A stretch of DNA of 64,000 nucleotides. Origin: a virus. A program made the position numbers and the translations under genes. This document shows positions 1,975 to 55,444 of the stretch, piece after piece. The notes beneath the pieces are model-generated. The model was not told where the DNA came from. It saw only the letters and a program-made list of their open reading frames with translations, and searched no databases. Location: the IMG/VR virus record IMGVR_UViG_3300025133_000033; one strand, given 5' to 3'. How positions within the stretch are numbered: position 1 is the first letter of the stretch; each line of letters starts with the position of its first letter.

Positions 1975-2559
1975 TTAGATAGTAGCCTTTGCTAGTTCTT
2001 TAGGAGGGATAGGAGACCATTGTAAACAGCATAATTTTAGATCAGAGATGGTGCATCTCCTATAGGTATTCCCTCCTTCACTGTTTATTCCACCGTCTTT
2101 TATTATCATAATCAGCTCATACTTCTCACCATAAGGAGTGGCAGGATGGTCTTCCAGAAGATCATATATAGGCTTTCCGTCACGTCGAAGAATATGATAA
2201 GGTTCATCTCGATTATGGAAGGACTTTTGAGCAGGAGACTCGTCCCATCTCATATTTTGATCTCCTAGTGCCTGTAATGTCATGATCGTGACAATACCCT
2301 TGTACTCTATCTCTATCTCAACATCAATTGTACGAAAACGGTCAGGGTTTTCATATAAAGCTATTTGACCAAGCTCAAAGACTTGCTCTAGATCATAAGA
2401 GATAGTAATATTCACGCTTTTAATATTATCTGATGAGATATATTTGGGACCACGACCCTTGACTAGAGGCTCTGCTTTAGCAGCCTTCTCGCCTAAAAAA
2501 GGCAACGCCCCCAGAAAAGGAAGCGTTGCCATAGACTTAAGTAGATTTCTTCTCTTCAT
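1975..2559 (-). CDS. Tat-signal protein with tail-tube-like segment
   Basis: KRRNLLK, h-region and AKA site; SVNITISYDLEQVFELGQIALYEN motif. Confidence 0.65.
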   Translation of the reverse strand: MKRRNLLKSMATLPFLGALPFLGEKAAKAEPLVKGRGPKYISSDNIKSVNITISYDLEQVFELGQIALYENPDRFRTIDVEIEIEYKGIVTIMTLQALGDQNMRWDESPAQKSFHNRDEPYHILRRDGKPIYDLLEDHPATPYGEKYELIMIIKDGGINSEGGNTYRRCTISDLKLCCLQWSPIPPKELAKATI

Positions 2560-3454: not shown

Positions 3455-3620
3455 AAGTCACTAATCTGTGTCTATTTTTACTTGGATATTTTTTAACTTA
3501 ATATTAATTTCAACCCCATCAGGAGTCTCTTTAACATCAACTTTATCCCATAGTTTGGTCGCCTTTGCAACATGCTCGCGAGTAATTCCAAGTTCAAGCA
3601 AGAACTTGTCTATCATCCAA

Positions 3621-3950
3621 CTACGTAGTGACCCCGCTCTCTCTTCTCTCTTTTTCGACATCGTTTTCTTCTTCCTCTTTGTGTGCGTCAACTAACATAG
3701 GGAAGACTTCTTTAAGCTTAACGCAAGCCTCGTCTAAGCCGTGCTCACGACAACCATCAGCAAGACATTCCCATTTACATACTAGATCGGCCAACTCAGA
3801 TTCATTATGCACGACAGGCTTTTTCTCTGAGTCATCCCAGAAGTCACCTAAGTACCCTTGGATGGTAGGCCATAGTAAAAACGCACCCGCCGCAAGAAGA
3901 ATAAGTTGAAAGGTATCAAGGTTTTTTACAAATCCTAAAATATTATCCAT
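3621..3950 (-). CDS. Single-pass membrane protein
   Basis: TM segment FQLILLAAGAFLLW. Confidence 0.65.
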   Translation of the reverse strand: MDNILGFVKNLDTFQLILLAAGAFLLWPTIQGYLGDFWDDSEKKPVVHNESELADLVCKWECLADGCREHGLDEACVKLKEVFPMLVDAHKEEEENDVEKERRESGVTT

Positions 3951-3965
3951 TACTCGCCCCTTCTC

Positions 3966-4145
3966 TTATTTGGTTTCACGAACAGCATCACCGATGATCC
4001 ATGCCACAACTATAGTAGAGATAGCAACCAGTTGCTCGGTATCTAATTCCACACCAAACACATCTTGACCAACTACAGCCACCAAACCTGCTGCTGCTGC
4101 CCAGAATCTACGGGATTTTAAAAGCGTTGATAGTTTATTTTTCAT
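3966..4145 (-). CDS. Holin-like two-TM small protein (59 aa, not in ORF track)
   Basis: MKNKLSTLLKSRRFWAAAAGLVAVVG...EQLVAISTIVVAWIIGDAVRETK; KSRRFW motif is typical of small phage holins; preceded by AAGGGG RBS. Confidence 0.7.
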   Translation of the reverse strand: MKNKLSTLLKSRRFWAAAAGLVAVVGQDVFGVELDTEQLVAISTIVVAWIIGDAVRETK

Positions 4146-4163
4146 TATGTTCCCCTTTCAGGA

Positions 4164-4541
4164 TTAATACGATTTAAACCAAAGTTTACGTTCATCGTCA
4201 GTAAACTTATACACCATACCCACAACACCGTCATACAAATAGGCTCTTTCTTTTCTCGGAACCTTGCGTGCTACGACAGTCCATAGGATAAATCTTTGAA
4301 AAATTGAAAGCTTACAGCTTTTTCTAATAGCCAGCTCTTTATCTCGATGATACCAGTTCCAGATTATCATTCCAATCCGGTATAATAGATTCACTAACAT
4401 GATTATAGTGACTATATCAAAGGTATAATTGTCTTCTTTTGCATCTTCACTAGCTAGATCATAGACCTTTGCTGCTAATGGAAGTAGCTCAGGATGATCA
4501 ACTTCTGACCCAAACCGAGCCTGTATTTCTTCTAATTTCAT
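4164..4541 (-). CDS. Hypothetical membrane-associated protein
   Basis: 125 aa with a hydrophobic segment. Confidence 0.65.
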   Translation of the reverse strand: MKLEEIQARFGSEVDHPELLPLAAKVYDLASEDAKEDNYTFDIVTIIMLVNLLYRIGMIIWNWYHRDKELAIRKSCKLSIFQRFILWTVVARKVPRKERAYLYDGVVGMVYKFTDDERKLWFKSY

Positions 4542-5359
4542 CGTCTAAATAGACCTCCGAAAATACCCCTACGTCTATATCTTCTATTAGACGAGGGTGG
4601 TGAAACTTTAGGTGGAGATGCCTTCTTACAAGAGACACACTCTTTCTTCTTTGGAACCTCTACAGGAGGAGCCTCAGTACCACACTTAGGGTTATGGGTG
4701 CATTTCTTACCAGATTCTATGCATGGGCATGGAGTACGGTGCCCATCTCCATGAATAATATATCCCAGCCCCTCGCACGGACAGTCTTCGTCTTCGTCTT
4801 CGTCTGGAGGGTCGGGCTCTACATTAGCATATTCCTTAATCGCTGACAATGCCTTCGCTTTATACGACTCGTATTCTTTATCTTGTTCAGACTTATATAG
4901 TTTCCATGACAAGCCATAGAAGAGTCGAGCTAATCTTCTTTTTTTATCTCCAGTTATAGGGTCCGTATCAGTCTGTGGCCCTAAAACTTTAGTCATAGCT
5001 TTCGCAACGGATGGAGAGAACTTTGGATATTTAGGAGACCCGTTGTCCATAAGCTCCGAACCAAATGTTTTCTTGCCAATAAAATCCATAAGGTATTGGA
5101 CTTGGAGATTCGTGTTAAGCGTAACCTTATCGAGCTTCTCTGATAAAGCATTGAACAGTCCTGCCAGCTTACTAGAGCCAGCATCATCTGAAACACTAAT
5201 ACCGTCAACAAGTGCAACGATATCTGCTTCTGGCTTCTCCAGCTTTGCATCACCTAGAGGTAATATTCCTCCAGACTTATACAAAAACGCTATAGCGATA
5301 AGCAAAATTCCTAGCAGCCCCCTAAAATTTAACCTACTCTCTTTTTCCATTATACCCAA
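4538..5359 (-). CDS. Membrane-anchored protein with Cys-rich C-terminus
   Basis: N-terminal TM; CPCEGLGYIIHGDGHRTPCPC. Confidence 0.7.
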   Translation of the reverse strand: MGIMEKESRLNFRGLLGILLIAIAFLYKSGGILPLGDAKLEKPEADIVALVDGISVSDDAGSSKLAGLFNALSEKLDKVTLNTNLQVQYLMDFIGKKTFGSELMDNGSPKYPKFSPSVAKAMTKVLGPQTDTDPITGDKKRRLARLFYGLSWKLYKSEQDKEYESYKAKALSAIKEYANVEPDPPDEDEDEDCPCEGLGYIIHGDGHRTPCPCIESGKKCTHNPKCGTEAPPVEVPKKKECVSCKKASPPKVSPPSSNRRYRRRGIFGGLFRR

Positions 5360-6276
5360 CCTCCTAAGCCATAATTTGGTAACTGACGTGCAGGAAATCC
5401 TTTTACATCGCTGAACGCAAAGGAACCGCGAGCATTCAAAATGGATCGAGCATCACGCTCACGCACCCAAAAGCTTCCATCAGGTTGACCGTGACGCTTG
5501 GGACCACCATTCCATTTTCCCCAGCTATTCTGAATTAAAAACAACATCTCATCAAAAAGTTCGCGAGTATCATCACAGGCTATCCAGGCCATCGCATGAT
5601 TCCAAGAGCCAGAGCGTCTTGCAATGCCCTGAGCATCACGAGTAGACGAAAAGCCCAGACTACTACAGCATGACAAGGCGTATCCATTACCTAATGCGTC
5701 TCTAGCCTCTTCAACAGTTGACACTAAAGAGATAGTATTAACAGGATGCTTACGTGCCTCTGTTCTATATACTGAATCTGGTATCCGATGCTTAGCACCA
5801 CTAGATGAATCATAAACAGACAAGTCGAAATCAGGATATGCTTTACGAAGCAATACTCCTCCTGTTTGATTTACATATCGTGCCGCACCAGAACAAGACA
5901 TTCCTTGTCCTCTGTGGTCTCTTGACTGGTAAATCCCCTCAGTAGCACCTCGTGCTTCCCAAGATTCAGCCTCTCCTTTAATATCTATTTCTACAGCCCG
6001 AGTAATATCAACGGCACCTCTAGTAGCATGGCTTACACAGTCGCCCGTAGTTTGACGCTCCGAAGGACCATACCCAGGATCAAATTTTATTAAAGATTTA
6101 AACGGCAGACTGAGCTTTCCAGCCCCGCTCTCAGATAGTTCCCACGCTGCCGCACCAAACATAGGCATAGGCAGCTCTCCCAAAAGAGCCTTTAGGTCTT
6201 CTGGATCACACTCTGCTCCCGCAAAGCCCTGTGTATAGGCTTCAACGAGTTCTTCTGGAGAATTATAGTCATCCAT
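5350..6276 (-). CDS. Papain-like (C1) cysteine peptidase
   Basis: Q..GDCVSH catalytic Cys, WNHAM His, QNSWG Asn. Confidence 0.85.
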   Translation of the reverse strand: MDDYNSPEELVEAYTQGFAGAECDPEDLKALLGELPMPMFGAAAWELSESGAGKLSLPFKSLIKFDPGYGPSERQTTGDCVSHATRGAVDITRAVEIDIKGEAESWEARGATEGIYQSRDHRGQGMSCSGAARYVNQTGGVLLRKAYPDFDLSVYDSSSGAKHRIPDSVYRTEARKHPVNTISLVSTVEEARDALGNGYALSCCSSLGFSSTRDAQGIARRSGSWNHAMAWIACDDTRELFDEMLFLIQNSWGKWNGGPKRHGQPDGSFWVRERDARSILNARGSFAFSDVKGFPARQLPNYGLGGWV

Positions 6277-6346: not shown

Positions 6347-8899
6347 CTAAGCACACTTCGAAAAGCCACATTGAGTACAGGTAATACATCCTTCTTGACG
6401 GATCAGACTCTCTTTTCCCTCGCATTCAGGACAAGCACAGTTTTCTTTAGCACCATCAGGGATGTATTTTTTAATGGCTCTAGCCATACTTTTCGCAAAG
6501 CATGTCATATCGCCCTTTACCTTCTCAAGCTGCTGTACAATCAGATGTATATCTGCACCATGTCGTAGACCTAGTGAGGTCATACGGGTCAAGGCATCTT
6601 CTTCAGCGGAACACGTTTGGTTTATTGGGGAAAGTTCTAAGCCGTCTTCTAAAATGGCCTTGTACACCCCTTTAGGTCTACCCAACTTTATTATAGTTCC
6701 ATTTAATACCTTTTTGTCTATGAATCCATTCTTACCCGCAAATACTTCATAAGGATCACCATTATATAATCCAACTAAAACGAAGTATGACTCGCCCTTT
6801 ACCTTAATGTGGTAGACATCACACGGTAATTCGCGGGGACGGTCGGGTGAAACGGTAGGTTTGATTTTGTCCTCGTTATCATCCAAAGATGATTCCGCAG
6901 CGAGAACAAAGGTCATGGTGCCTGCTCTATAGGTAGTAAAACCCTTGATACCATTTTTCCACGCCTTGGTATACACCATTTTAAAGTCATCATATGGGTA
7001 TTCTTTGGTCAGGTTAATGGTTTTAGAGATGGCAGAGTCTACCCATTTTGCGAAGATTGACATTGTATTAACATGGGCATCTACATCTAGCTCCATAGAA
7101 CATGATGCCCACTGAGCTTCAGGATTCCACTTGTCGAGCCCCTTCAGAATAGACACTCCATAGTCTTCGACCCACTCCTCTTTAGTTAGACCTCTATTAC
7201 GGTCAAACTTCCAGGTCTTATCTTCAAATGAAGTAGCTAAGAGATTTTCATCTCCTTCTTTTATCCATTTCCAATCAGTATGAGGGCTTCCGTTATAACT
7301 GTCTATATCAAACTTCTTGTTTTCCCAGCTCACATTTTTTGGAACAGCTAACCCTTCTGGAGGAACAGGCTGTATGGAAGTTCTGACATAACCATGCATA
7401 AATAAGGGCTCAAGACCACCGCTAACAAGGTTCGCGAAACACGAACTATTGCCGGTAGGTTGAATTGAGGTGACATGAGAATTTCTCATTCCATGCTTCT
7501 TAATCAATGCTATAGTTGATGGGTCAAGCTTCTCAATAAACTCTCCCCTTAAGTACTGTTCTTCATCATATAGGTCAAAAGACCCCTTCTCTTTTGCTAA
7601 TAAAGCAGATGCCTTGTACGCCTCATTGGTAAAGAATTCCATTAGTTCTTCTGTCATCTTCAACGCTTTTGGACTACCATATTTAACACGAGCCATGAGC
7701 ATAGCAGAGCCATAGCCCAAGACACCGAGACCAATACGTCGTTTGTCTTTCAGGTTTTTCTTTTGAGAAGACAATGGAACGTTTGTAATATCATTTACAT
7801 TATCCATAAACCTTACGGCTGTATGTATATTTTCCTTTAGCTCTTTCCACTTCCATTCTTTTGTTAACGGATCAATGAAGTGAACTAAATTAATAGAACC
7901 AAGTAGACAAACAGCACCTATAGGAAGAACTTGTTCTCCACAGGGATTGGTCGCATTTATCCATTCCAACCAGTGCAAATTATTCATGCGATTCATAGTA
8001 TCAACAAACAATACTCCCGGTTCGTTCCGGTTATATGTATTGCTCATGATAAGATCCCATAGCTCACGAGCCGAATCAAATTTATGGTGAACAACCAAAG
8101 GGTCTTTTGGTTCCTCTAGGCGTATGATAGAGTTGAATGACTCCGCTTTCTCTACGTTATCAACCCACCTCTCTATGCTCCCATCCCAGCCCTCTTTGTA
8201 TAGCTTTGGATATGCCTCATAGTTAGGAAAGACTAGCTCCCAAGGCTGATCGTTTTCTACAGCATTCATAAATTCATCAGTACATAGCACCGACATATTG
8301 AACTTAGTCAGACGACCAGGGGTTTTCTTGGCCTCTATAAACTCTAGAACATCGGGGTGCCAGCATGACATTGTTACCATCTGGGCACCTTTACGAATGA
8401 AGTTCTTTTCATTCTTATTTGACTTTTTATTTGAGCCAGCAGTAATAATTTCAGAAGACTTGTCCCATAGCTCTAAGAACTTAACTGAGCCAGGAGATTG
8501 GTTGGCTATGCCGTGAATATGAGACCCGCAAGGACGCATAATATCAGCACAGAAGCCATAGCCACCCTCTGACTTAAGGATTTGGGCTTGCTTTGTAAGA
8601 GTGCCGTAGATACCCTCTATGGAGTCTTTGTCTCGGCCTTCGAACCCATCAACGAAGCAGTTGATATAGGTCGTTCCTTTGATTCCGGTCCCAGCATTTG
8701 AGGTAATGCGACCGCCAGGAACAAATTTGAAATTTTCTAGAGCTTGATAGAATTTCTTAGTCCACTTTTCTTTATCTTTTTCTACCCCTGCTAGGTTGAC
8801 TGCTACTCTCTTCCATGTGTCCTCTACACAAGTATCATCCTTGAACTTATACTTCTGAAACCACGTCTCTTCCGAGAACGAATTGGTAAACGCACTCAT
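6347..8899 (-). CDS. nrdJ: Adenosylcobalamin-dependent ribonucleotide reductase (class II)
   Basis: PGGRI, NCFV, TNPCGEQ, CLLGSINL, QPTG; C-terminal TSCPD-like domain and Zn ribbon; no beta subunit nearby. Confidence 0.92.
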   Translation of the reverse strand: MSAFTNSFSEETWFQKYKFKDDTCVEDTWKRVAVNLAGVEKDKEKWTKKFYQALENFKFVPGGRITSNAGTGIKGTTYINCFVDGFEGRDKDSIEGIYGTLTKQAQILKSEGGYGFCADIMRPCGSHIHGIANQSPGSVKFLELWDKSSEIITAGSNKKSNKNEKNFIRKGAQMVTMSCWHPDVLEFIEAKKTPGRLTKFNMSVLCTDEFMNAVENDQPWELVFPNYEAYPKLYKEGWDGSIERWVDNVEKAESFNSIIRLEEPKDPLVVHHKFDSARELWDLIMSNTYNRNEPGVLFVDTMNRMNNLHWLEWINATNPCGEQVLPIGAVCLLGSINLVHFIDPLTKEWKWKELKENIHTAVRFMDNVNDITNVPLSSQKKNLKDKRRIGLGVLGYGSAMLMARVKYGSPKALKMTEELMEFFTNEAYKASALLAKEKGSFDLYDEEQYLRGEFIEKLDPSTIALIKKHGMRNSHVTSIQPTGNSSCFANLVSGGLEPLFMHGYVRTSIQPVPPEGLAVPKNVSWENKKFDIDSYNGSPHTDWKWIKEGDENLLATSFEDKTWKFDRNRGLTKEEWVEDYGVSILKGLDKWNPEAQWASCSMELDVDAHVNTMSIFAKWVDSAISKTINLTKEYPYDDFKMVYTKAWKNGIKGFTTYRAGTMTFVLAAESSLDDNEDKIKPTVSPDRPRELPCDVYHIKVKGESYFVLVGLYNGDPYEVFAGKNGFIDKKVLNGTIIKLGRPKGVYKAILEDGLELSPINQTCSAEEDALTRMTSLGLRHGADIHLIVQQLEKVKGDMTCFAKSMARAIKKYIPDGAKENCACPECEGKESLIRQEGCITCTQCGFSKCA

Positions 8900-13773: not shown

Positions 13774-14243
13774 TCTTTTATGTTCCTAAAATCAAAAACT
13801 TGTGAGGGGTCAACTGCCAGCTTCTTTTTACCTTTCTCTGTACCACGAAGCTCCATTAGTCGTATCGCTACCTTCTCCATAAATTGCAATCTATGAATAT
13901 CTTCCTGTGCCCATACACTGAGAGCCTGATATACAAACTCTGCTATCTCTCCAGTCTCTATTCGAAGACAAGTACGAGCCAGTAGATCAGCAGATGTTTC
14001 GGAAGCATCCTCTACCGCTGCTGAGACATATAGCTGCCCATCCTTACAGCTATACTCAATACCTATCTTGCCATCGCACTCCTCGTCTTCTCCCATACGA
14101 GCATTATGACAATCAGTACATCGTGCTGAGGTTCCAGCCCAGTAGACAGGGTCGCAGGACTTACCACAGTCGGCACAATCTACGGAGGCAGGGGGCTTGG
14201 CATTATAATCAAAGATTAGTGATACTAACTTTCGCAAAACCAT
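13770..14243 (-). CDS. Hypothetical zinc-binding protein
   Basis: CADC...CTDC. Confidence 0.6.
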   Translation of the reverse strand: MVLRKLVSLIFDYNAKPPASVDCADCGKSCDPVYWAGTSARCTDCHNARMGEDEECDGKIGIEYSCKDGQLYVSAAVEDASETSADLLARTCLRIETGEIAEFVYQALSVWAQEDIHRLQFMEKVAIRLMELRGTEKGKKKLAVDPSQVFDFRNIKE

Positions 14244-15060
14244 CTTGATCCTTTCCGCTTAAAAATGTCCCAATCTTACGTGCCACCCCTAATCGAAACT
14301 CTTGAGGTACTGAGCTATCGCTATAGTCGGTTGTTATATAAGAGCCATTAGCATAGGCGTTGGCTCCTGGGGTAGGTTCTCCCAAAGGTCTCGTAATGAT
14401 TGTGCCTTTTCGCAACACCTGAACCTTACCGCCCTTCATAACATCTGAGGCAAGAGGGTAGTGAGAATTGGTTAAATCAATGTTTACTACATCGTTTAGA
14501 AGAATACCTGCAACAGGCTCGTCTCCTTGTTGTAGTCTAACGCATTCTACTGGGCACTCAGGATGACTTATCCCATCGTAGGTTACTACAGAGCCTTTCT
14601 CTGCCACCTGATCCATAAAAAAGGATGAGTCCACCTCTCGAATATCTCTCTGTGCCCTTAAGCCTTTCGCCGTACCAGTGTCCCATAGATCAAGAGTTCC
14701 CGAAAGAGGAGAAACTCCATAGTTGTGGGTCGTCATAGGAGAGGGGCTGTCAGGACTATGTATCTCATGGATACAATCATCAAGGCTTTCATAATACTCA
14801 ATTTTAAAATCTTCGCCAAGAGGAAGAAGATTTCCCGACCCACCGTTTATGACCTTATTCTCTAGCCACTTTGGCCACTCTGTTCTAACTCCGTTAACGG
14901 AAGTTGTTTCGTCTGGAAACGTAGTCTTAGTATAGGTGACTGCGGCATCCTTTTCAATCGTCGCCTGCTCTATCGCTTCTACTTTTTTTACTAAAGGTGC
15001 TGCTGCTAGAGCACCAATGCCAAGTCCTAATTTTTTAAAAAAATCTCTGCGTCCTGTCAT
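14209..15060 (-). CDS. Tat-signal protein fused to a head-decoration-like domain
   Basis: GRRDFFKK, h-region and VEA site; C-terminal half has SFFMDQVAEKG, GILLNDVVNIDLT, KGGKVQVLRKG, GTFLSGKDQDGFAKV. Confidence 0.7.
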   Translation of the reverse strand: MTGRRDFFKKLGLGIGALAAAPLVKKVEAIEQATIEKDAAVTYTKTTFPDETTSVNGVRTEWPKWLENKVINGGSGNLLPLGEDFKIEYYESLDDCIHEIHSPDSPSPMTTHNYGVSPLSGTLDLWDTGTAKGLRAQRDIREVDSSFFMDQVAEKGSVVTYDGISHPECPVECVRLQQGDEPVAGILLNDVVNIDLTNSHYPLASDVMKGGKVQVLRKGTIITRPLGEPTPGANAYANGSYITTDYSDSSVPQEFRLGVARKIGTFLSGKDQDGFAKVSITNL

Positions 15061-20286: not shown

Positions 20287-20591
20287 TGGTGGAGCCGGGG
20301 GGGATTCGAACCCCCCGTCCCTAATTGTTTTCAATAAAGCGTCTACGTGTTTGTGTCGAGCTAAGCCCTGCACGACCAAGGGGCAGGATAGTTTAATGAC
20401 CTCTTACAGTCCAGCTTCAAAACAGGTATCTAGCTTTGGTTAACAGGGTGCTAGATAACCCCTACTGCTTACGCAGCTAAAGCAAAGTTTTCGTTTGCAA
20501 TTAAATGTTAGTCAATTTTTTAGGTAGCCCTTTGACCAACTACCACACGCAACTTTACATCCGTCCAATAGGTCGAAACCAAGTCGGCCCC
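20287..20591 (-). ncRNA. ssrA: tmRNA with tag (A)ANENFALAA
   Basis: 5' GGGGCCGACTTGGTTTCGAC; 3' GTTCGAATCCCCCCCGGCTCCACCA; tag ORF at 20469-20498. Confidence 0.96.
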
Positions 20592-20597
20592 AAACAG

Positions 20598-20669
20598 AGA
20601 GCGAAGAGGGATTCGAACCCCCGTAGATCTGAGTTGCAGTCAGACGCCTTGCCTCTCGGCCACTCGCTC
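20598..20669 (-). tRNA. tRNA-Cys(GCA)
   Basis: Cloverleaf; anticodon loop CTGCAAC. Confidence 0.9.
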
Positions 20670-20675
20670 TAAAAG

Positions 20676-20747
20676 TGCAGCTACGGAGAATCGAACTCCG
20701 ATCTCAACGTTGGCAACGTTATATACTAGCCTTTGTACGATAGCTGC
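20676..20747 (-). tRNA. tRNA-Gly(GCC)
   Basis: Anticodon loop TTGCCAA. Confidence 0.9.
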
Positions 20748-21107
20748 CTATTCTTCCTCAATTGCTTCTCTAACAATTCCTACCCACATATCATCAAGTT
20801 CGTGATCGGTAAAGTCGCCAGGAAACATCTTGCGAATCTGATTCCTAACAGCCATACCCTCTCGAAAATGAACAGGGTGAGGGACTGCCCCGTTAAAGAT
20901 TACAGGATCAACTCTGCCATACTCTCTATAGTAGTCACGGAAAAGTTCGATACCTTCAGGCTTTAACCAGCCCCTAACTCTCTCAACAATATCTTGTCGT
21001 TGAGTTTTCCTGTTGTTTTTAATGACTATGATCCTTGACTTGCTTGCTCCAATGACAAACCTCTCGTCTTTGATACCAGTGTACCATTTTATGACCGTGT
21101 TCATCAT
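20748..21107 (-). CDS. Hypothetical protein
   Basis: 119 aa ORF. Confidence 0.55.
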   Translation of the reverse strand: MMNTVIKWYTGIKDERFVIGASKSRIIVIKNNRKTQRQDIVERVRGWLKPEGIELFRDYYREYGRVDPVIFNGAVPHPVHFREGMAVRNQIRKMFPGDFTDHELDDMWVGIVREAIEEE

Positions 21108-21214
21108 GCTCTACGATCACCAACCAAAACGGAAGGGAAAGTAGGCGTCTGCGTGCATTCTTATGTTCGAATGTCTTACCGCACTTAAGTGCAACATTAA
21201 TAGTATTCATAATA

Positions 21215-21544
21215 CTACCTCCGATAGTACCGTGTTTTTCCAGCTCTAAAATCGAACGTACTATATCCCCGGTACTGAGAAAAATTAACATTAACGCCAA
21301 ATCTTACATACCTCTGTGGCGAGATGTAAGTTGGCCCGATACTCATGTATGTCCCGGTTGGATACCAAGTAACAACTGGGCGATAGGCGATCACAGGCCC
21401 ATGCCTGTGTAGCCCTGCGTGGGGATGTGCGTGCCAGTGTCCGTTGTGATGGTGCTGACCAAAGGCATCGCTTGCAAAGAAGCCAAGGGAAAAGAACATC
21501 AATTGGACAAAGAAAAAGAACAAGATTAAAAGTAGCTTCTTCAT
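21215..21544 (-). CDS. Secreted His-rich small protein
   Basis: MKKLLLILFFFF signal; HHHNGHWHAHPH; start reassigned because the longer ORF overlaps a tRNA. Confidence 0.65.
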   Translation of the reverse strand: MKKLLLILFFFFVQLMFFSLGFFASDAFGQHHHNGHWHAHPHAGLHRHGPVIAYRPVVTWYPTGTYMSIGPTYISPQRYVRFGVNVNFSQYRGYSTFDFRAGKTRYYRR

Positions 21545-21562
21545 TACATCACCTTTATAGAG

Positions 21563-21633
21563 TGCAAGATATCGGAATCGAACCGATGACCTTTGAGTGG
21601 AAGTCAAATGTTTTACCACTAAACTAATCTTGC
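21563..21633 (-). tRNA. tRNA-Gly(TCC)
   Basis: Anticodon loop CTTCCAC. Confidence 0.85.
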
Positions 21634-21705
21634 CAATGTTCCTTTGCGTGACAGTTGGCACATAGAACTACACATTTTTCAATTTCTTTGAAGATTTTGG
21701 AAACG
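21633..21705 (-). pseudogene. HNH endonuclease C-terminal relic
   Basis: Reads SKIFKEIEKCVVLCANCHAKEHW with no upstream gene body. Confidence 0.7.
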
Positions 21706-21788
21706 CCCCCAACGTCTTGAGGTAGGCCCGTCAGCCTATGATCTGCGTGGGAATCGAACCCACCTATGTCCGTTTATCAACGTTTCAG

Positions 21789-21861
21789 TGAGAGCGGTGG
21801 GAATCGAACCCACATTATCTTGGTTAAGAGCCAAGTGCATTACCTTATCTGCCACACTCCC
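21789..21861 (-). tRNA. tRNA-Lys(CTT)
   Basis: Anticodon loop CTCTTAA. Confidence 0.9.
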
Positions 21862-22144
21862 GTTAAAGCCCGCCTCGGCTGGTGGTACTAACGGACCCTC
21901 ATAAAGTCCTCCCACATTCTTATTTAAACGTCGGCTACAACGTACCGAATTTCGCATCCTTCTAGAACAGATGCCGAGCCTTATCATCACTCTTAGTCAT
22001 CCTGACTTAACGAAAACTTTTCAGCGTCCGAATAAGCCATACAACCGCTCACAGCGTCCATAGACGCCCCCGCTACCACAGCACTTCTTCAAGTTCACCA
22101 AAAGTTAAGGTATTCATCAAATTCTCCTTATCACGTTAGTGAAG

Positions 22145-22217
22145 TAGGCAATAAGGGAGTCGAACCCCTTCTTCTAGTTCCGTAGACTAGCGTGCTATTC
22201 CGTCACACTCATCGCCC
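22145..22217 (-). tRNA. tRNA-Arg(ACG)
   Basis: Anticodon loop CTACGGA. Confidence 0.85.
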
Positions 22218-22222
22218 AAATA

Positions 22223-22540
22223 TTATTCTCTAATCTCTATGTTTTCTAGTCCAGACTCAAATATCTCATCTAGCTTTTGCATCAAGAAAAAGCCAGCCAT
22301 ATAAGACTTCATACTTTCTTTATCTTGACTTAGAATTAAGAGGACAGGCCCCTCGGCATTATCAATAGATCCTGAATCTGCGAAGATAGTAAAGACCTTG
22401 CCCGACTGATTAAATTTCTCAATAAATTCCAGCGGAACCTCGTTCGTATAAACGTCATCGTCCATACTGTATTCATCGGAACCTACCTCTTTCCAAATGC
22501 GAAAGCGGTATAGTTGAGTAGTTTCTAGTGTATCTGTCAT
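22223..22540 (-). CDS. Hypothetical protein
   Basis: 105 aa ORF. Confidence 0.6.
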   Translation of the reverse strand: MTDTLETTQLYRFRIWKEVGSDEYSMDDDVYTNEVPLEFIEKFNQSGKVFTIFADSGSIDNAEGPVLLILSQDKESMKSYMAGFFLMQKLDEIFESGLENIEIRE

Positions 22541-22546
22541 AATAAA

Positions 22547-22735
22547 TTATCCTGTTGCTGAAATTGCTTGTCTTTTTCCAGATAGATACTGAGTGTATTC
22601 TATACTCCCTAGCTCGTAAGGAGGTTCTTCTTCGTTAGGAATATTAGGCTCGTCGTCTCGTCTCCCATATAAGTATACCACGTAACCACGGTCAAAAGGC
22701 TCTAAAGCTTCAAAATATTCCTGTGAGATAGTCAT
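22547..22735 (-). CDS. Hypothetical protein
   Basis: 62 aa coupled ORF. Confidence 0.5.
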   Translation of the reverse strand: MTISQEYFEALEPFDRGYVVYLYGRRDDEPNIPNEEEPPYELGSIEYTQYLSGKRQAISATG

Positions 22736-23067
22736 CTTTTCAAGCCCATTTGAGAACGTTCTAAGTCCTCCAATGCAATTTCACACAGGTTTTTAATGTC
22801 ATCTAAGTCTCCATTATCAACTATGCATTTATCCTCATACGGGTCCAAGAGCCTACGTCTGATCTCAGTTTCGGCAGAAGAGATATGACCTAACGCATTA
22901 CTTAGTTCGGTATATCCACGAGGGTCTAAAATCCCCAACGTCAATCGACAGATGATATAGTTCAGAGCACCTCCTCTTTTTTCCTTTGGGACGTGAAGAG
23001 AATCTTCTATTAATACATCAATACTATCGTCTATTAAGTTTCTATGTTCCTGTGGGATGTAAGGCAT
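22732..23067 (-). CDS. Conserved phage hypothetical protein
   Basis: MPYI..GALNYII..EIRRR..PYEDKC..NGD pattern, recognised as a common phage family. Confidence 0.75.
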   Translation of the reverse strand: MPYIPQEHRNLIDDSIDVLIEDSLHVPKEKRGGALNYIICRLTLGILDPRGYTELSNALGHISSAETEIRRRLLDPYEDKCIVDNGDLDDIKNLCEIALEDLERSQMGLKR

Positions 23068-23098
23068 GTCCTGTCCTTTCGAGTTCCAAGTAAGTAAG

Positions 23099-23184
23099 CG
23101 GAGGGTGAGGGAATCGAACCCGCCAACCCGTCTTAGGGGCTACTGCTTAGCAAGCAGCTTCCGTAGCCAATTTGGTTACCCTCC
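23099..23184 (-). tRNA. tRNA-Ser(GCT)
   Basis: Loop TTGCTAA; long variable arm; G73. Confidence 0.9.
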
Positions 23185-23189
23185 ATTAG

Positions 23190-23263
23190 TAGTACGGGAG
23201 GGAGTCGAACCCTCAAACACTAGTTCCTAAAACTAGTCGCTCTGCCAGTTGGCGTACCGTACC
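23190..23263 (-). tRNA. tRNA-Leu(TAG), short variable loop
   Basis: Loop TTTAGGA. Confidence 0.85.
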
Positions 23264-23268
23264 ATGAG

Positions 23269-23342
23269 TGGTGTGGGAGGGGGTCGAACCCTCAACTACT
23301 AAGGTTTGAGCTTAGCTCCTCTACCTGTTGGGATACCACACC
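23269..23342 (-). tRNA. tRNA-Leu(CAA), short variable loop
   Basis: Loop CTCAAAC. Confidence 0.85.
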
Positions 23343-23441
23343 TAACGAATACCTAGTCCCCTAAGTATTAAGTCTATCCAACAAATTAAAATATCACAAG
23401 TCCAGATTGCCAATCCTCGCCAATCAGGGTATCTCATTTAG

Positions 23442-23516
23442 TGATGCCGGTGGGGGTCGAACCCACAAACTACAAGATTTTAAGTCTTGTTCCTCTACCA
23501 GTTGGGATACGGCACC
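23442..23516 (-). tRNA. tRNA-Leu(TAA), short variable loop
   Basis: Loop CTTAAAA. Confidence 0.85.
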
Positions 23517-23530
23517 GTGTTATTAGCTAT

Positions 23531-23685
23531 ACCAGTGTGCTACTACGCCAAAGACCATGCTGCATGTTCGCATGACGCCCCCGCACATGCTTTCCGCGAG
23601 AGTTGGTTGTTACCATACGCCCCCTTCTTTCTACGGAAGGGAATCACTCTTTAAATGATGGCTGCTTCTAAGCCCACATCCTAGT
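23531..23685 (-). ncRNA. 23S rRNA GTPase-associated-centre (H43-H44, uL11-binding) mimic with internal insertion
   Basis: ACTAGGATGTGGGCTTAGAAGCAGCCATCATTTAAAGAGTG-[~96 nt]-GCGTAGTAGCACACTGGT, compared with 23S 1051-1108. Confidence 0.85.
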
Positions 23686-23704
23686 AGTCTTCGCTAATAA
23701 ATTG

Positions 23705-23784
23705 TCCCCTGCCCAGAACGTACACGGTCGCGACCCGTCCTAGAGGTTCACCAAGGTCACGGTCGAATTGAACGGCCTTCGGGG
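23705..23784 (-). ncRNA. Candidate small RNA with a 5'-proximal T-arm
   Basis: CCCC/GGGG termini; GGCCG-TTCAATT-CGACC T-loop hairpin. Confidence 0.4.
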
Positions 23785-23787
23785 TAG

Positions 23788-23860
23788 TGGGCAATGAGGG
23801 ATTCGAACCCCCGACCATTTGGATGTAAGCCAAACACTCTAGCCGCTGAGTTAATCGCCC
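23788..23860 (-). tRNA. tRNA-Val(TAC)
   Basis: Loop CTTACAT. Confidence 0.9.
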
Positions 23861-23862
23861 GC

Positions 23863-23925
23863 TTTATGTTCTTTTCTATGACAATTAGCACATAGAACTT
23901 CACACTTTTTTATCTCTTCTAGTAT
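23863..23925 (-). pseudogene. HNH endonuclease C-terminal relic
   Basis: Reads ILEEIKKCEVLCANCHRKEHK. Confidence 0.7.
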
Positions 23926-23926
23926 T

Positions 23927-24325
23927 CTACTTCTTCTTTATTTCCCTAAGTTTTCTTAGTCCTTTTCTATATTCTTTTGGTAAGAGTAGCCTCTCTTGTA
24001 TTTCAGGATCTTCCTGGGTCCAAGACTCGCGTACTATCTTACATTTTATTCTTCTAAGTAATTTCCCATCCATCCATATACACTCGTAAAGTCCCGTCTG
24101 ATAATTGTACGTTGGAATTTGGGATCTATCTTTCAAAAGTCTCCAGGCTTTAACTTGATAACGGTTGGAATAACAGGACCAGTCATAGAAGATAGCTTGG
24201 TCAAAGACCAGTCTAGCCTCATCATCATAAAAGTGATTGACCTCTATTAGATCTACTGTCTCTTCAAGGGCAACTTCTTCGTTGGGTTGTAATGCAAAAC
24301 AAAACAATAGGAGCAGTGCCGCCAT
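23927..24325 (-). CDS. Secreted hypothetical protein (Planctomycete-like)
   Basis: Signal-like N-terminus; ETVDLIEVNHFYDD..LVFDQ. Confidence 0.7.
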   Translation of the reverse strand: MAALLLLFCFALQPNEEVALEETVDLIEVNHFYDDEARLVFDQAIFYDWSCYSNRYQVKAWRLLKDRSQIPTYNYQTGLYECIWMDGKLLRRIKCKIVRESWTQEDPEIQERLLLPKEYRKGLRKLREIKKK

Positions 24326-24342
24326 TGAGCCAGCCTCCTTAA

Positions 24343-24711
24343 TTAATGTAGAAGATCAATCCTACCTTTCTCTAGCACTTCTTTCAAAGGAGCTGTCTTG
24401 CCGTTAGTATGGTTCGTGACAATTCCCTTTTTGAAATCGTATGTGCGAATCCTTGGAGTGTTTTTAATCTTATCGTCGCGTCTCGCCTTCTTCTCTGCTG
24501 CCTGCTGCTCGTCTTGTTGTTCTTTTATTTTTTCCTCGATACGCTTAAGAGCTATGCGATGATTCTGCTTGCGGGTACGCTGTTCGTCTATCTCCACCTT
24601 TAGTCCTGTGGGGATATGAACAATCCTACATCCTGTCTCTACCTTATTCTTATTCTGACCACCAGGGCCTTTCCCTTTGTAGTAAGAAATCTTTAGGTCT
24701 TTCTTATTCAT
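24343..24711 (-). CDS. RF-1 domain (GGQ) peptidyl-tRNA hydrolase, ArfB/PrfH-like
   Basis: GPGGQNKNKVETGCRIVHIPTG, RIRTY; no stop-codon recognition domain. Confidence 0.9.
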   Translation of the reverse strand: MNKKDLKISYYKGKGPGGQNKNKVETGCRIVHIPTGLKVEIDEQRTRKQNHRIALKRIEEKIKEQQDEQQAAEKKARRDDKIKNTPRIRTYDFKKGIVTNHTNGKTAPLKEVLEKGRIDLLH

Positions 24712-24735
24712 CTCTTCTTCCTTTTGTTAAGTAAG

Positions 24736-24808
24736 TCGTACTCCTGTGAGTCGAACACAGTACGTCTTCCTTATCAGGGAAAACCGCATAACCGATGCAG
24801 CGAGTACG
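24736..24808 (-). tRNA. tRNA-Ile(GAT), atypical D arm
   Basis: CGTACTC/GAGTACG acceptor stem; loop CTGATAA; T arm CTGTG-TTCGACT-CACAG. Confidence 0.75.
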
Positions 24809-24810
24809 GT

Positions 24811-24977
24811 GTGCAGGCTCACGAGTTCCTGCGTGCCCCTTGAACTGAACCTTGGCTGGCCAATTTAACTCTGTAAAGAGGACCAAGGTAGGGTAATGTT
24901 CCGACCTACATTCAAAGGCCGTATTGGTTGCGGACGACTACCCCCATGAAGAGTAGCCACTGATCAGGTTATCCGCA
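24811..24977 (-). ncRNA. Candidate structured RNA
   Basis: Multiple nested stems between two tRNAs; no credible ORF. Confidence 0.45.
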
Positions 24978-24978
24978 G

Positions 24979-25050
24979 TGGACAGTACGGGACTCGAACC
25001 CGTAAAACCAGCTTGCAAGGCTAGGATGATCCCAATTTCATCAACCGCCC
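24979..25050 (-). tRNA. tRNA-Ala(TGC)
   Basis: Loop CTTGCAA; G3:U70. Confidence 0.9.
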
Positions 25051-25061
25051 ATGATTGACAG

Positions 25062-25134
25062 TGGGGCCGGTGGGAATCGAGCCCACATTGCCTTGATTAA
25101 AAGTCAAGTACATTACCTTATCTGTCACAGCCCC
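25062..25134 (-). tRNA. tRNA-Lys(TTT)
   Basis: Loop CTTTTAA. Confidence 0.9.
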
Positions 25135-25327
25135 GTAATAAATGCCTGAATCCTACCGCTTAGGTCTGGCATTCCATCGTTTGCAGCCTCGTCTCTGAGT
25201 TCGACGAGCAAGTCCTTTAGTTCAGATAGCTCGTTGCGTCCTAGCTGAGCTAGATGACAATTCTGCGGATCATCACCATTAAAACCACCTCTTATAATTG
25301 CTTCAAGTACCCAGATAGCATGTTCCA

Positions 25328-25726
25328 TTAATAAACCTCGTGATGACATTCATCGTCTTCTTTATTATACACTTTACAGTAGTATTCTTCGTCGATTATT
25401 TGATGCTCAGACCATGCCCCGTCTTCACAAATCTCATAACCGCACTTGGCACAGTTAATTCTTATGTAGTCGAGCGGATTAGAACCAGAAATATCTGTTG
25501 TCCCCATCAGCCCTACTAGCCATTCTATCTTCTTTTGATCATCAGATAAAACTTCTAGGTCGTCCCAATCAAGCTCGCCACGGATCTCGGGGTGCTTGCC
25601 TAAAGCCTCTCCAAAATAAACTATTTCTCCTACGGCCCGCTCTACATCCTCTTCTTCGGCAACAAACAACCCATGTATATCACCGTGTCTTCCGCAGTCC
25701 CAATGAAACTTGTACAGTTTCTTCAT
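25328..25726 (-). CDS. Conserved phage hypothetical protein
   Basis: YKFHWDCGRHGDIHGLFVA..YFGEALGKH pattern. Confidence 0.7.
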   Translation of the reverse strand: MKKLYKFHWDCGRHGDIHGLFVAEEEDVERAVGEIVYFGEALGKHPEIRGELDWDDLEVLSDDQKKIEWLVGLMGTTDISGSNPLDYIRINCAKCGYEICEDGAWSEHQIIDEEYYCKVYNKEDDECHHEVY

Positions 25727-25760
25727 GCTTAAGATCCTTTCATAATAATGCCCTTTAAAG

Positions 25761-25845
25761 CGGAAGGTGAGGGACTCGAACCCATCAACCCGTCTTAGGG
25801 GCGGCTGTTTTCAAAACAGTCTGCTTTCCAATTCGCATACCTTCC
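25761..25845 (-). tRNA. tRNA-Ser(TGA)
   Basis: Loop TTTGAAA; long variable arm. Confidence 0.9.
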
Positions 25846-26177
25846 ATTTTTAAAGGTAGAACTTAACAACAATCACAACCATCGTAGCAAGGACAGCAAG
25901 GACTACTGAAGAATATATAGCCCAGTTTGCCGTAGCTATCTGATGATCTATCTTAGCCATACGCTCCTTAATCAATCTCTCTTGTTCCAGTATTTCTTTT
26001 TGCCAATCAGTCATTACCGACCCTCTCTATAAGTGTTAGTGCCACTACAACTCTTGCAAAGAAAAAACGTTCTAAACTCTGAAGTAGGTGAAACATCCAT
26101 CATATTAAAGGAACGACAGTCGTTACAGACTGGAAAAAACTTATTCAGTATCCAGTGAATCATATTCTCTCCTTGTA

Positions 26178-26235
26178 TGGTGGACTGATCGGGGAATCGA
26201 ACCCCGCAGCAACTAGTATAGATCCAACCCAGCCC
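26178..26235 (-). ncRNA. 58-nt alanine-identity minihelix (acceptor stem plus T arm, encoded CCA)
   Basis: GGGCTGG...CGGGG-TTCGATT-CCCCG-A-TCAGTCC-ACCA; G3:U70 and A73. Confidence 0.6.
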
Positions 26236-26240
26236 ATAAG

Positions 26241-26315
26241 AGGTTCCGATGGGACTCGAACCCACATATTCTTGATTACAAATCAAGACCGATTGCCATT
26301 TCCGGTCACGGAACC
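26241..26315 (-). tRNA. tRNA-Thr(TGT)
   Basis: Loop TTTGTAA. Confidence 0.85.
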
Positions 26316-51315: not shown

Positions 51316-53355
51316 TTATTCTCCAGAGTGTAAAGTTGCCAAATCTAACATATTAATAGTATCCACCAACATTGATGAATGCGAAGAAAGTTGCCAGTCT
51401 CCAATCTCGTCAAGGAAAGAGATTAAGATAGGGTATCTTTCTCTTACTGCGTCTTCCAACTCTTCAACTTTAATCGAGTCTTTCTTGTATTCAAAATTAT
51501 ACCCCGCTAGACTCGCAAGAGATACAAAAGAGCTGACAAAATTATCAGTTTTTACATTTTTTAAATCCTTCGTATAGTCAGCCAAGAGCTTAGCAGGGCT
51601 GTTTGGGTCGATGAACTCCCCTCCGCCAGCAATAGTGCATAGCCGTTTTCCTAGACCCATGATGCCCAATGCGTACATATTGGAGGCACGCTCTTGAAGG
51701 TTGTCTCCATCCAACTCTGCCAGTTCCGCCTTAATCCAGTCTCGGAAATGAATAAAGTTCGACTTGTTAGACAGCTTACTTGTTTGGTTATTAAGCCCGA
51801 TAATATCTGGAACATCCAAGCCTAAAGAAACGCATTCGTTTCTAGCACTATGAACGTTAAAGTCCATATCATATCTGTCCAGGTTAATATACACCTGATC
51901 CTCAGACACATCAATTTCGCACTCAGTATCCCAGTATCGAGACTCATAGACGTTACTACGAGTTGAACTGTTCCCTTTAGGACAATACCCTTTTACTGTT
52001 CTAGTGGTCTTTCTAACACGAGACCCACGAGCCGCTGGTGCAGGCTTAGGTAGCTCACTAGACAGGAAGACAACATTGTCGGGCTCTGTAGCACCAACCG
52101 CTGTCAGGGCCTCAGCCTTTGTTATTCCTTTTACTAGATAAACAAAAAGGTCCGAATCAGTGCTTGCCAAAAGACGACAGGCTTTATCAAACCCACGCTC
52201 CTCGTCTTGAATTACAATCTTAGAGTAGGGAGATACTGGACAACTATTCTTATATTCCAGAGTATTCCTTTTAACCTTGGTTCCAGTACCAACGCCGCTA
52301 TACTTGAATCTCCAGGTAGCCTCAAGCTCTATGCTCTTAACAATGTCCCACTTCGAAGAAGAGAAGTCAAGGTTAAGATTAGTAAGCTTAGTTCTCCACC
52401 TTTTAGCAAGTAGAGAGGCATCCCACTGGCTTTCGCATTCGTCTAACTGCTTAGTTACTTGTATTCCTACTTCACTAGCAATCTCTTCACAACGACGCTT
52501 AATTGTCGCAATTGTTTCGTCGTTGTATTCTAATTGCTCACGAGAGGGAGTCATATGAACCTCTCCCATGTCAACAGTGAAGTGAACACCTTTATCTAAG
52601 ATCTTCTCTGCAACGCTGCCATATGGCATCTGACTTGAATTAACAGGATAAGCAATGTTACCCATAACCACATACGATCTCTCATAACTCCCAGTCATAT
52701 ACCAAGAGTCACCTTCAAGAGTTTTTTCGTATGTCTTAAGAGCAAATTCATCGCTCCCATTAACTACAGGTGAAGTAGAGAAGAACGAATAGACATGCTC
52801 TGCCGACTTGCGGAAGCGGGTATGGTCATCTTCTTTTACAGCAAAAGAAATCTCAACCCCATTAGGTTCGTCCGTTGGATGTTCACCGTACACATTGAGT
52901 TCTGGAATACCAGACTCATTGTAGCACATAGTGTACATTCGTAGGCAACCATCAATGTAGGTTGTCACATTGAAGCTGTCGCTGTATGCGAGAGGAGTCT
53001 TAGACCCGATACCAAAGTATCCAGTTTCATCATTGGTATGCTGCTTGTCAGACTTCATGTACTCTGCGTACACGTTTCTCATAGTGTCTGGAGACATACT
53101 CACACCAAAGTCACGAATCCGCAAATGAGGATCGAGCTGAGTGGGTAACTGGACACGAAACGGAGTATCGTTAATCTCCGCCCGATAATGGGAATCCATC
53201 GCATTGGCACCCAACTCTTGCAGGATCGCTTTAATAGGATCAGAGTATTGGCGTGCCAACATTTTAAAAGAATGGGCAGTTGGTGCCAGACCGCAAGTAA
53301 TGCGTTCTACGATACCATGTCGTTCAATATCGTTCGGCGTGTTTTGAACTTTCAT
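51316..53355 (-). CDS. rIIA: rIIA-like protein (GHKL ATPase N-terminus)
   Basis: YSDPIKAILQELGANAMDS, IRDFGVSM, GYFGIGSK, PSREQL. Confidence 0.88.
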   Translation of the reverse strand: MKVQNTPNDIERHGIVERITCGLAPTAHSFKMLARQYSDPIKAILQELGANAMDSHYRAEINDTPFRVQLPTQLDPHLRIRDFGVSMSPDTMRNVYAEYMKSDKQHTNDETGYFGIGSKTPLAYSDSFNVTTYIDGCLRMYTMCYNESGIPELNVYGEHPTDEPNGVEISFAVKEDDHTRFRKSAEHVYSFFSTSPVVNGSDEFALKTYEKTLEGDSWYMTGSYERSYVVMGNIAYPVNSSQMPYGSVAEKILDKGVHFTVDMGEVHMTPSREQLEYNDETIATIKRRCEEIASEVGIQVTKQLDECESQWDASLLAKRWRTKLTNLNLDFSSSKWDIVKSIELEATWRFKYSGVGTGTKVKRNTLEYKNSCPVSPYSKIVIQDEERGFDKACRLLASTDSDLFVYLVKGITKAEALTAVGATEPDNVVFLSSELPKPAPAARGSRVRKTTRTVKGYCPKGNSSTRSNVYESRYWDTECEIDVSEDQVYINLDRYDMDFNVHSARNECVSLGLDVPDIIGLNNQTSKLSNKSNFIHFRDWIKAELAELDGDNLQERASNMYALGIMGLGKRLCTIAGGGEFIDPNSPAKLLADYTKDLKNVKTDNFVSSFVSLASLAGYNFEYKKDSIKVEELEDAVRERYPILISFLDEIGDWQLSSHSSMLVDTINMLDLATLHSGE

Positions 53356-53425: not shown

Positions 53426-53649
53426 CCCGTACTGGGAAAAATTTTTACGTATTCTTCATTTACTTCGTCTGAGTCAATTTTTTGGGTATCGGGATGCACA
53501 CCAAAACCCTGCTCTGATACCCAGTAGTGCCCGCCAACCATAATCGTTGAAAAACGAAATAGATGTAAAGCTTTAGCACAGGCAACAACTGGATTATCAG
53601 CCTCTACGATAGTAGTCTCTTTACCGTCTCGGATATAATACTTAGGCAT
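53422..53649 (-). CDS. Hypothetical protein
   Basis: MPKYYIRDG..VSEQGF. Confidence 0.6.
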   Translation of the reverse strand: MPKYYIRDGKETTIVEADNPVVACAKALHLFRFSTIMVGGHYWVSEQGFGVHPDTQKIDSDEVNEEYVKIFPSTG

Positions 53650-54424: not shown

Positions 54425-54476
54425 GACGATCTCCTTTAGTTTTGTGAGCAAAAATCTACGAGTACACTGTTCTTTT

Positions 54477-55330: not shown

Positions 55331-55354
55331 AGCTTTTCTCTATTAAAAGTAAAG

Positions 55355-55436
55355 TGTGCCGAGAGGGATTCGAACCCCCAACGTTTCTTTGTAACTGATT
55401 TACAGTCAGCGTGCTTCACCATTTGCATATCGACAC
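55355..55436 (-). tRNA. tRNA-Tyr(GTA)
   Basis: Loop CTGTAAA; long variable arm. Confidence 0.9.
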
Positions 55437-55444
55437 ATACTAAG

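Follow-up and report, generated by a model that had tools for sequence, protein, structure and literature searches.

Predicted Tat signal peptides head a tail-tube-derived protein and other virion-protein copies in a marine phage

Why a phage should place an export-type signal in front of what looks like a piece of a tail tube protein, and keep the resulting gene among replication genes, is the question raised by a short open reading frame (ORF) named here P0001. The window, meaning the whole 64,000-nucleotide stretch of DNA analysed (IMG/VR virus record IMGVR_UViG_3300025133_000033), is phage-like, and every gene in it lies on one strand. Its genes include those for ribonucleotide reductase, an HNH endonuclease, dCMP deaminase, thymidylate synthase, a ClpP-like protease, a clamp loader, a sigma factor and RIIA, together with a tmRNA and 24 tRNAs; the presence of a sigma factor suggests that the host is bacterial. 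Contigs from many marine samples carry this DNA without any change, and the longest measures 134.7 kb. The answer favoured here, at a probability of roughly 0.45, is that P0001 would be a tube paralog exported by the twin-arginine (Tat) pathway, serving as an exclusion or sensing decoy against superinfecting kin phages.

Several features of the window describe the phage more generally. The tmRNA gene (tag ANENFALAA) and the 24 tRNA genes occupy 20287-26315 and 55354-61724 (minus strand), while an RIIA-like protein (phrog_612, E 3.5e-98) and a sigma-factor-like protein are encoded at 51316-53355 and 53642-54451 (minus strand). The ribonucleotide reductase gene of the window (6347-8899) has no intein, unlike that of a related phage (L003:1352-5326), in which Pfam marks an intein with an HNH domain.

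In the ORF list of the window, P0001 starts with ATG, encodes 194 amino acids and covers exactly 1975-2559 on the minus strand, to which all gene coordinates of the window given below also refer. A Shine–Dalgarno-like GGAGG, read from the sequence, stands at 2569-2573, 9 nt 5' of the ATG at 2559. Gene callers working on contigs from other samples called the identical 194-aa form, and one JGI gene call begins at M10; between M10 and the conserved block of the protein, the sole in-frame start is a GTG lying within that block. Upstream, a Cys-rich 80-aa ORF (2537-2779) overlaps the start of P0001 with its final 23 nt. Downstream, a 76-aa ORF (1744-1974) with no signal and no family separates P0001 from its neighbour P0002; it differs from the conserved ~75-aa gene found upstream of the P0001 homologue in related phages.

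The relatives of P0001 were defined by phmmer and exhaustive HMMER search of 1.84 billion representative proteins, in which the phmmer relatives ranged from E 1e-12 to 8e-4 and the true relatives were of two kinds. The first kind consists of short proteins, P0005 (277 aa), P0006 (224 aa) and P0012 (198 aa), to which P0149 and P0150 were added by profile search. Together with P0001 they form a short family of six clusters in all, whose members are 25-35% identical. The second kind comprises proteins of about 370 amino acids without a signal. The giant repeat proteins P0004, P0007 and P0011, which stood atop the match list, were rejected as homologues, their scores being sums over dozens of sub-threshold repeat matches. 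A word-indexed search of 5.8 billion proteins recovered P0001 alone, and tblastn of P0001 against 50,697 phage records gave no match. Similarly, searches of Pfam, PHROGs and NCBIfam yielded no family above threshold for P0001 and no tube model.

The N-terminus of P0001 had been read in the first-pass annotation as a Tat signal, and at the level of sequence all parts of such a signal are present: the motif, the hydrophobic stretch, and a basic c-region with an AxA site. The protein begins with MKRRNLLKSMATLPFLGALPFLGEKAAKA, followed by E at the predicted cleavage point. Residues 1-29 (2473-2559) thus divide into the n-region KRRNLLK, the h-region SMATLPFLGALPFLG and the c-region EKAAKA, with AxA before E30. 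The K-R-R-N-L-L-K string conforms to the Tat consensus (S/T)-R-R-x-F-L-K. The h-region has 15 uncharged residues with a mean Kyte-Doolittle value of 1.34, in keeping with the moderately hydrophobic stretch of ~12-20 residues expected of such signals, and the c-region supplies the basic "Sec-avoidance" residue ahead of the AxA site. The duplicated LPFLG reported earlier is also there, at residues 13-17 and 19-23.

The same architecture recurs in the homologues. All five, which come from other phages, start M..RR, with n-region motifs such as RRDFNK, RRELFK and RRRDFNK, and an alignment of four short-family members shows R3, R4, K8, L13, P14, G17 and L19 to be invariant. The short relatives keep L13, P14, G17 and L19 of the core as well as a common C-terminal part. 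Hydrophobic stretches span 11-19 residues across P0001, the five homologues and the neighbouring ORFs with an RR signal, the uncharged stretch being just 11 residues long in P0012 and P0150. The signal features are shared by seven further RR ORFs from the same gene neighbourhoods, and all 12 distinct signals match R-R-x-[FL]-[FLVN]-[KRG]. Among the 1,891 ORFs of all fetched loci, N-termini combining RR with an uncharged stretch are almost confined to these tagged genes. In the window, a crude scan of 854 start candidates left only three real ORFs of this kind, at 1122-1772, 1975-2559 and 14209-15060. The Tat models TIGR01409 and PF10518 returned no row for P0001 or its homologues at E values up to 10 or 1; HMMER filters discard most weak short matches, so that the missing row for P0001 weighs little. 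Residues 1-29 of P0001 therefore form a canonical-looking Tat signal peptide, as judged from its sequence.

Cleavage of this peptide bears on what the protein might do. The c-regions of homologues read KKAIA, KKAEA and DKSAKA, and a clean AxA site follows a basic c-region in four of the six short-family members, whereas P0012 has no AxA site. The latter would suit a protein that keeps its RR segment as an uncleaved signal anchor and acts as a membrane-bound accessory in lysis timing or envelope remodelling, directed at the host envelope and not at other phages. Its partners would be a papain-type peptidase and a block of membrane proteins encoded at 3461-6276, just upstream in transcription. 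Besides a papain-like (C1-peptidase-like) ORF with the motifs GDCVSHA, NHAM and NSWG, this block contains ORFs for a Cys-rich, membrane-anchored protein, for two membrane proteins and for a holin-like protein of 59 aa; it terminates at a strong terminator (3454-3431) and is possibly a lysis cassette. However, that terminator and the HNH gene separate the two blocks, the clean AxA sites of most family members speak for cleavage, and the use of virion-protein paralogs, described below, would be left unexplained. An accessory role in lysis or the envelope is consequently unlikely, and the exclusion or sensing role remains the preferred reading.

A second feature is superimposed on the signal codons. 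Codons 10-23 of P0001 (2491-2530) can fold into a hairpin resembling an intrinsic terminator, with a 12-bp stem and a U-run, at -27.2 kcal/mol (z -5.2; 0 of 200 shuffles equally stable). The GC-rich hairpin (2530-2501) lies 7-36 nt past the stop codon of the upstream ORF. The LPFLG repeat (LP-FL-G twice) arises because the two hairpin arms and two U-tracts are read as codons. The same stem is found in L108 (432-475) and L087 (8031-8076), with two compensatory pairs; L003 has a weak form of it and L109 lacks it. The hairpin nucleotides are conserved far more than the remainder of the gene. The hairpin looks like an intrinsic terminator of the upstream unit, set in a permissive h-region, and it probably limits transcription into P0001.

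Such a structure invites the suspicion that the "signal" is merely an in-frame reading of a terminator and the body behind it a functionless remnant of a tube gene, whether as a decaying duplicate or as a mis-called ORF. The position of the hairpin behind the upstream stop codon, together with its encoding of the LPFLG repeat, would agree with this, as would the gene call starting at M10 and the lack of any Pfam, PHROGs or NCBIfam family above threshold. Nevertheless, the coding reading survives: the codons of the RR motif precede the hairpin, and L109 conserves the peptide without it. Moreover, six proteins of no more than 25-35% identity all retain an intact ORF with its RR start, h-region and C-terminal part, the homologues share one genomic position, and the only in-frame start between M10 and the conserved block is the GTG within that block. 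Decay or mis-calling is therefore very improbable, and P0001 is treated in what follows as a genuine protein headed by a predicted Tat signal.

The part behind the signal had been described as a tail-tube-like fragment, and this description agrees with profile comparison. Aligned with hhalign, the short family matches the ~370-aa family with a probability of 98% and E 2.2e-13, residues 45-88 of P0001 (2296-2427) falling on residues 34-77 of the tube proteins, which are the nearly invariant and most conserved block of the N-terminal repeat. Agreement between the short family and the C-terminal repeat is poorer (E 6.5e-6). In the opposite direction, tblastn of tube proteins against the window finds the P0001 block at E about 1e-8. 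The strings quoted in the first-pass annotation, DVEIEIE included, do lie downstream of the signal, within residues 46-85: residues 46-71 read IKSVNITISYDLEQVFELGQIALYEN and residues 79-85 DVEIEIE. Its statement that the pattern is typical of tail-tube beta strands is a general one, whereas the match found is to one particular tube family.

Beyond this block, the likeness fades. The family-specific C-terminal part, residues 89-194 (1975-2295), is beta-rich in a low-confidence model. Residues 90-194 give a collinear, non-significant alignment with the tube-protein strand that precedes the PVDG motif (E 0.1), and the last conserved tube strand (LVGN.K) is missing. The word "fragment" is thus fair, since 44 residues are robustly homologous and the remainder is merely weakly collinear. 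AlphaFold2 with a 64-row alignment produced a beta-rich topology at pLDDT 55 and pTM 0.40, and from the single sequence a pLDDT of 33. Searches with the pLDDT 55 model for similarity to the tube fold, a beta-sandwich with one helix, gave nothing significant in Foldseek (PDB, BFVD), VIA wide or Atlas. Lipocalin and designed-barrel rows appeared in the fold searches at chance level, and no fold conclusion was drawn from them. The best explanation of the mature protein (~165 aa) would be a diverged single-domain paralog of the tube N-terminal repeat.

The link from P0001 to named tube models is indirect, leading through the ~370-aa family to phrog_985, PF26461 and PF18906, so that the identity of this parent family matters. 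It comprises more than 2,800 clusters on contigs of up to 161 kb, although a tblastn search with one of its proteins found no member among 50,697 deposited phage genomes. Each protein contains two related blocks, near residues 45 and 255, and the two repeats match each other in profile-profile comparison (93.5%, E 2.2e-7). On this evidence, the ~370-aa family is a tandem duplication of a predicted tail-tube domain. Gene order is consistent with the assignment: in L002 the 2,376-aa PF10145 tape measure is encoded three genes downstream of a member, and in L025 and L068 the member is found downstream of the capsid gene and of small connector-sized genes.

Model matches point the same way. For nine of ten ~370-aa members tested, phrog_985 was the only PHROG matched (E 4e-4 to 5e-3), the first or the second repeat falling on profile positions ~20-70. 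The tail tube protein of phage K, identical to the solved tail tube chain 8q01_A, matches phrog_985 over its full length at E 2.8e-75. In addition, precomputed Pfam assignments place PF26461, named Phi812_tail_tube in Atlas, on part of the family, and 3 of 35 members give weak matches to PF18906 (Phage_tube_2). Direct hhalign comparison of the tube-family profiles with the single phage K tube sequence was not significant, and searches of PDB sequences with two tube-family profiles and with P0009 gave chance matches only. Taken together, the ~370-aa family is very probably a tail tube protein by its sequence relations. In a scan of genome collections, tube genes appeared in metagenome-assembled genome bins of many unrelated phyla, and this scatter gives no clue to the host. 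The native N-terminus of the parent tube family (loci L009-L086, tube genes at about 6001), M-x-N-[KR]-R-[IV]-F-[WY]-A, resembles an RR motif and reads NRRVFWA in some members; it may have been the seed from which the signal arose.

A tube-related protein could also be an authentic minor component of the tail that is encoded outside the tail module, for instance one that uses the tube fold to initiate or terminate the tube. Many phages do employ tube-fold paralogs as tube initiators, tail terminators or distal tail proteins. P0001 and its homologues, however, lie outside the tail module, whereas true tube genes precede the tape measure. The P0001 family sits in the replication module in all lineages, and the tail modules of about 80 related loci lack it. 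Synteny within the replication module extends over three phage lineages, and five other divergent phage proteins preserve the gene together with its signal and its place there. The N-terminus of P0001 is, moreover, of the export type, and companion genes carry the same tag on capsid and decoration paralogs. A minor tail component is accordingly a most improbable identity for P0001, and a predicted exported paralog of the tube fits its neighbourhood better.

The nearest of these companions is P0002 (1122-1772; 216 aa, MNINRRSFFR...GQA), which combines a predicted Tat signal with a mosaic of capsid and tube segments. Its signal has a 16-residue core and scores 14.8 bits against TIGR01409, for which the cutoff is 16.7. 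Residues 123-161 (1290-1406), which contain EEIHELGRRGPY, are homologous to the C-terminal repeat of the tube family (hhalign 95.7%, E 8.7e-9). The first-pass annotation had noticed that a motif of P0001 is echoed by EEIHELG in the neighbouring Tat ORF, and homology bears the echo out, as the EEIHELG block corresponds to the second tube repeat. Direct BLASTP of P0001 against P0002 is not significant, so the echo becomes visible only through the tube family; the two motifs are different yet related because each protein carries one of the two paralogous repeats of the tube.

The remainder of P0002 derives from another structural gene. Residues 45-155 match the capsid gene of related phages (E 4e-17) and residues 183-207 an earlier capsid segment, so that the capsid pieces stand out of their native order. 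The succession is Tat signal, capsid segment, tube C-repeat block, a 16-aa piece from the end of the tube N-terminal half, and the earlier capsid segment. The 16-aa piece is absent from the ortholog in L108, a 234-aa ORF that is otherwise collinear with P0002 (40% identity, E 2e-39). No relatives of P0002 were found in IMG/VR.

A whole capsid paralog is encoded nearby. P0234 (378 aa) was found on an identical contig from another sample (L091:5658-6794), its gene lying about 1.5-2.6 kb before the start of the window in the same phage. The protein starts with MKRRDFVKALGVLGISVPLAVDLEA and continues from the predicted Tat signal through a ~40-aa linker into the capsid paralog. From residue 69 to its end it aligns with the whole of a 328-aa protein of L025 (30% identity, E 6e-31), which is the major capsid protein (phrog_2522, E 9.5e-6; Atlas capsid clusters, TM 0.96). 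The counterpart of P0234 in L003 is P0235 (340 aa, MERRNFLKG), located after RecA.

The third Tat-signal ORF of the window, P0233 (14209-15060; 283 aa, MTGRRDFFKK...KKVEA), extends the pattern to a further class of structural protein. Its C-terminal domain is homologous to a small virion protein whose gene immediately precedes that of the capsid in L025 and L068 (E 1.3e-13 to L025:549-956), and the ORF L025:549-956 itself matches phrog_563, a virion structural protein (E 8e-5). P0233 would accordingly be a decoration-like virion paralog. The gene sits between the thymidylate synthase gene and a dehydrogenase-like gene, and its signal is a textbook Tat signal.

Related phages have equivalent genes, in each case between an HNH gene and the zinc-ribbon, RecA, DnaB and primase genes. 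L003, L005 and L008 have P0012, an 83-aa MNINRR ORF and a 340-aa RR ORF after RecA; L087 and L007 have P0005 followed by 186-aa and 202-aa RR ORFs; and in L108, P0149 is followed by RR ORFs of 217 and 234 aa. RR-signal ORFs of these relatives are located at L007:547-1737, L108:1223-2733 and L003:9756-10007. Members of the "MNINRR" family, 83-217 aa long, contain the N-terminal portion of the capsid protein. By sequence comparison, these genes are a conserved set of two to four per genome in which predicted Tat signals head copies or mosaics of virion proteins. Its members, classified in the same way, are the tube N-terminal repeat, the capsid and tube mosaic, the whole capsid paralog and the decoration-like domain. 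The set as a whole is located in the replication and nucleotide-metabolism region, outside the virion module.

What such a set might be for can be framed most concretely for P0001. The protein would be made alongside the genes of the replication module, with the hairpin in its signal codons throttling its transcription, and would fold in the cytoplasm before export. The host Tat translocase, presupposing that the host has one, would then carry it to the periplasm or to the outer face of the inner membrane. There, P0001 would keep a virion-type contact surface and bind incoming virion parts, such as the tube end or the tape measure, of the same or related phages, and this binding would block or report superinfection. 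The preserved binding surface is an assumption, since only 44 residues are robustly tube-like. In addition, exclusion fits the capsid paralog poorly, because a periplasmic capsid copy would have no obvious target on an incoming virion. A broader version covers the whole set: a lineage of large uncultured marine phages equipped with dedicated Tat-exported virion mimics, which would be expressed together with the replication genes and would use surfaces of virion-virion contact outside the cytoplasm to recognise, exclude or sense kin, or else to export or trap subunits. Such a lineage is a tentative proposal and, on balance, a doubtful one.

The capsid copies are better accounted for if the tagged paralogs act before export. 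Tat exports folded oligomers that bear a signal on one subunit only, a process known as "hitchhiking" and exemplified by the small and large subunits of hydrogenase. The paralogs could likewise co-assemble in the cytoplasm with genuine tube and capsid subunits, whether these belong to a co-infecting relative or to the phage's own virion, and drag them to the Tat translocon, with the result that the assembly of a competitor is poisoned or that small amounts of true virion protein are exported. Besides the established precedent, the full-length capsid paralog and the presence in the set of those tube and capsid blocks that are most conserved and likely form interfaces favour such trapping over periplasmic exclusion for the capsid copies. 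Nevertheless, P0001 retains just 44 clearly tube-like residues, the distance of the paralogs to the tube proteins is, for every phage sampled, as great as that among the paralogs themselves, and a phage that poisoned its own assembly would pay dearly. Trapping of subunits is thus rather unlikely as the role of P0001.

Bacterial immunity offers a different target. Capsid or tail tube proteins activate a number of defence systems, including DSR2 (tail tube protein) and CapRel (capsid), and the tagged copies could be decoys against a host defence that senses such proteins at the envelope. An anti-defence role would go well with early expression alongside the replication genes. The known sensors are cytoplasmic, however, so that export would take a decoy away from them, and P0001 matches no known anti-defence family in Pfam or PHROGs. 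A defence decoy is for these reasons distinctly unlikely, and exclusion or sensing of kin phages is retained as the leading proposal for P0001.

Virion proteins are not known to work outside the cytoplasm and the particle. The tagged copies of tube, capsid and decoration proteins depart from this picture in bearing predicted signals for the export of folded proteins, and their design and gene position are conserved across phages in which identity between the copies is only about 30%. Should export take place, these phages have turned the interfaces of their own assembly to a task in the envelope, most plausibly the recognition or blocking of related phages, and this would be an unusual viral use of the Tat pathway. 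If the proposal is true, export-tagged duplicates of structural genes would represent a new class of phage–phage interaction module, and superinfection control in abundant ocean phages would have a new and testable mechanism.

Comparison with known systems places P0001 between several of them. The tail tube of the Staphylococcus phages K/phi812 (PHROG 985, PF26461, PDB 8q01) and PF18906 are related to it through the ~370-aa parent family. Unlike that tube protein, P0001 bears a predicted export signal, has ~44 recognisable residues, is encoded among replication genes and matches no model. The tail tube protein pb6 of phage T5 reportedly consists of two fused tube domains, and in its domain plan it resembles the parent family, which is also a tandem duplication of the tube domain; P0001, in contrast, is a single truncated copy with a predicted export signal.

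For the proposed function, the closest parallels are exported phage proteins of superinfection exclusion, among them Imm and Sp of T4 and Llp of T5. Ltp, a lipoprotein of the Streptococcus thermophilus phage TP-J34, is reported to stop DNA entry by binding the tape measure protein (PMC3952083, citing Bebeacua et al. 2013). The likeness would be one of arrangement: a small phage protein outside the cytoplasmic membrane could meet incoming tail parts. Ltp, Imm/Sp and Llp differ from P0001 in using Sec or lipoprotein signals or membrane helices and in not being virion-derived, and searches of Pfam, PHROGs and NCBIfam gave P0001 no sequence similarity to exclusion proteins or to any annotated family.

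Tat-tagged paralogs of tube or capsid proteins did not turn up in full-text searches of the literature, in which the nearest case was WceF of Pantoea stewartii, a bacterial glycan-modifying enzyme with a phage-tailspike-like fold and a Tat signal (PMC7949094). WceF and P0001 are alike in placing a virion-type fold, in P0001 a predicted one, behind a Tat signal. WceF is nevertheless a cellular enzyme, whereas P0001 is phage-encoded, apparently derived from a tail tube and free of enzyme features.
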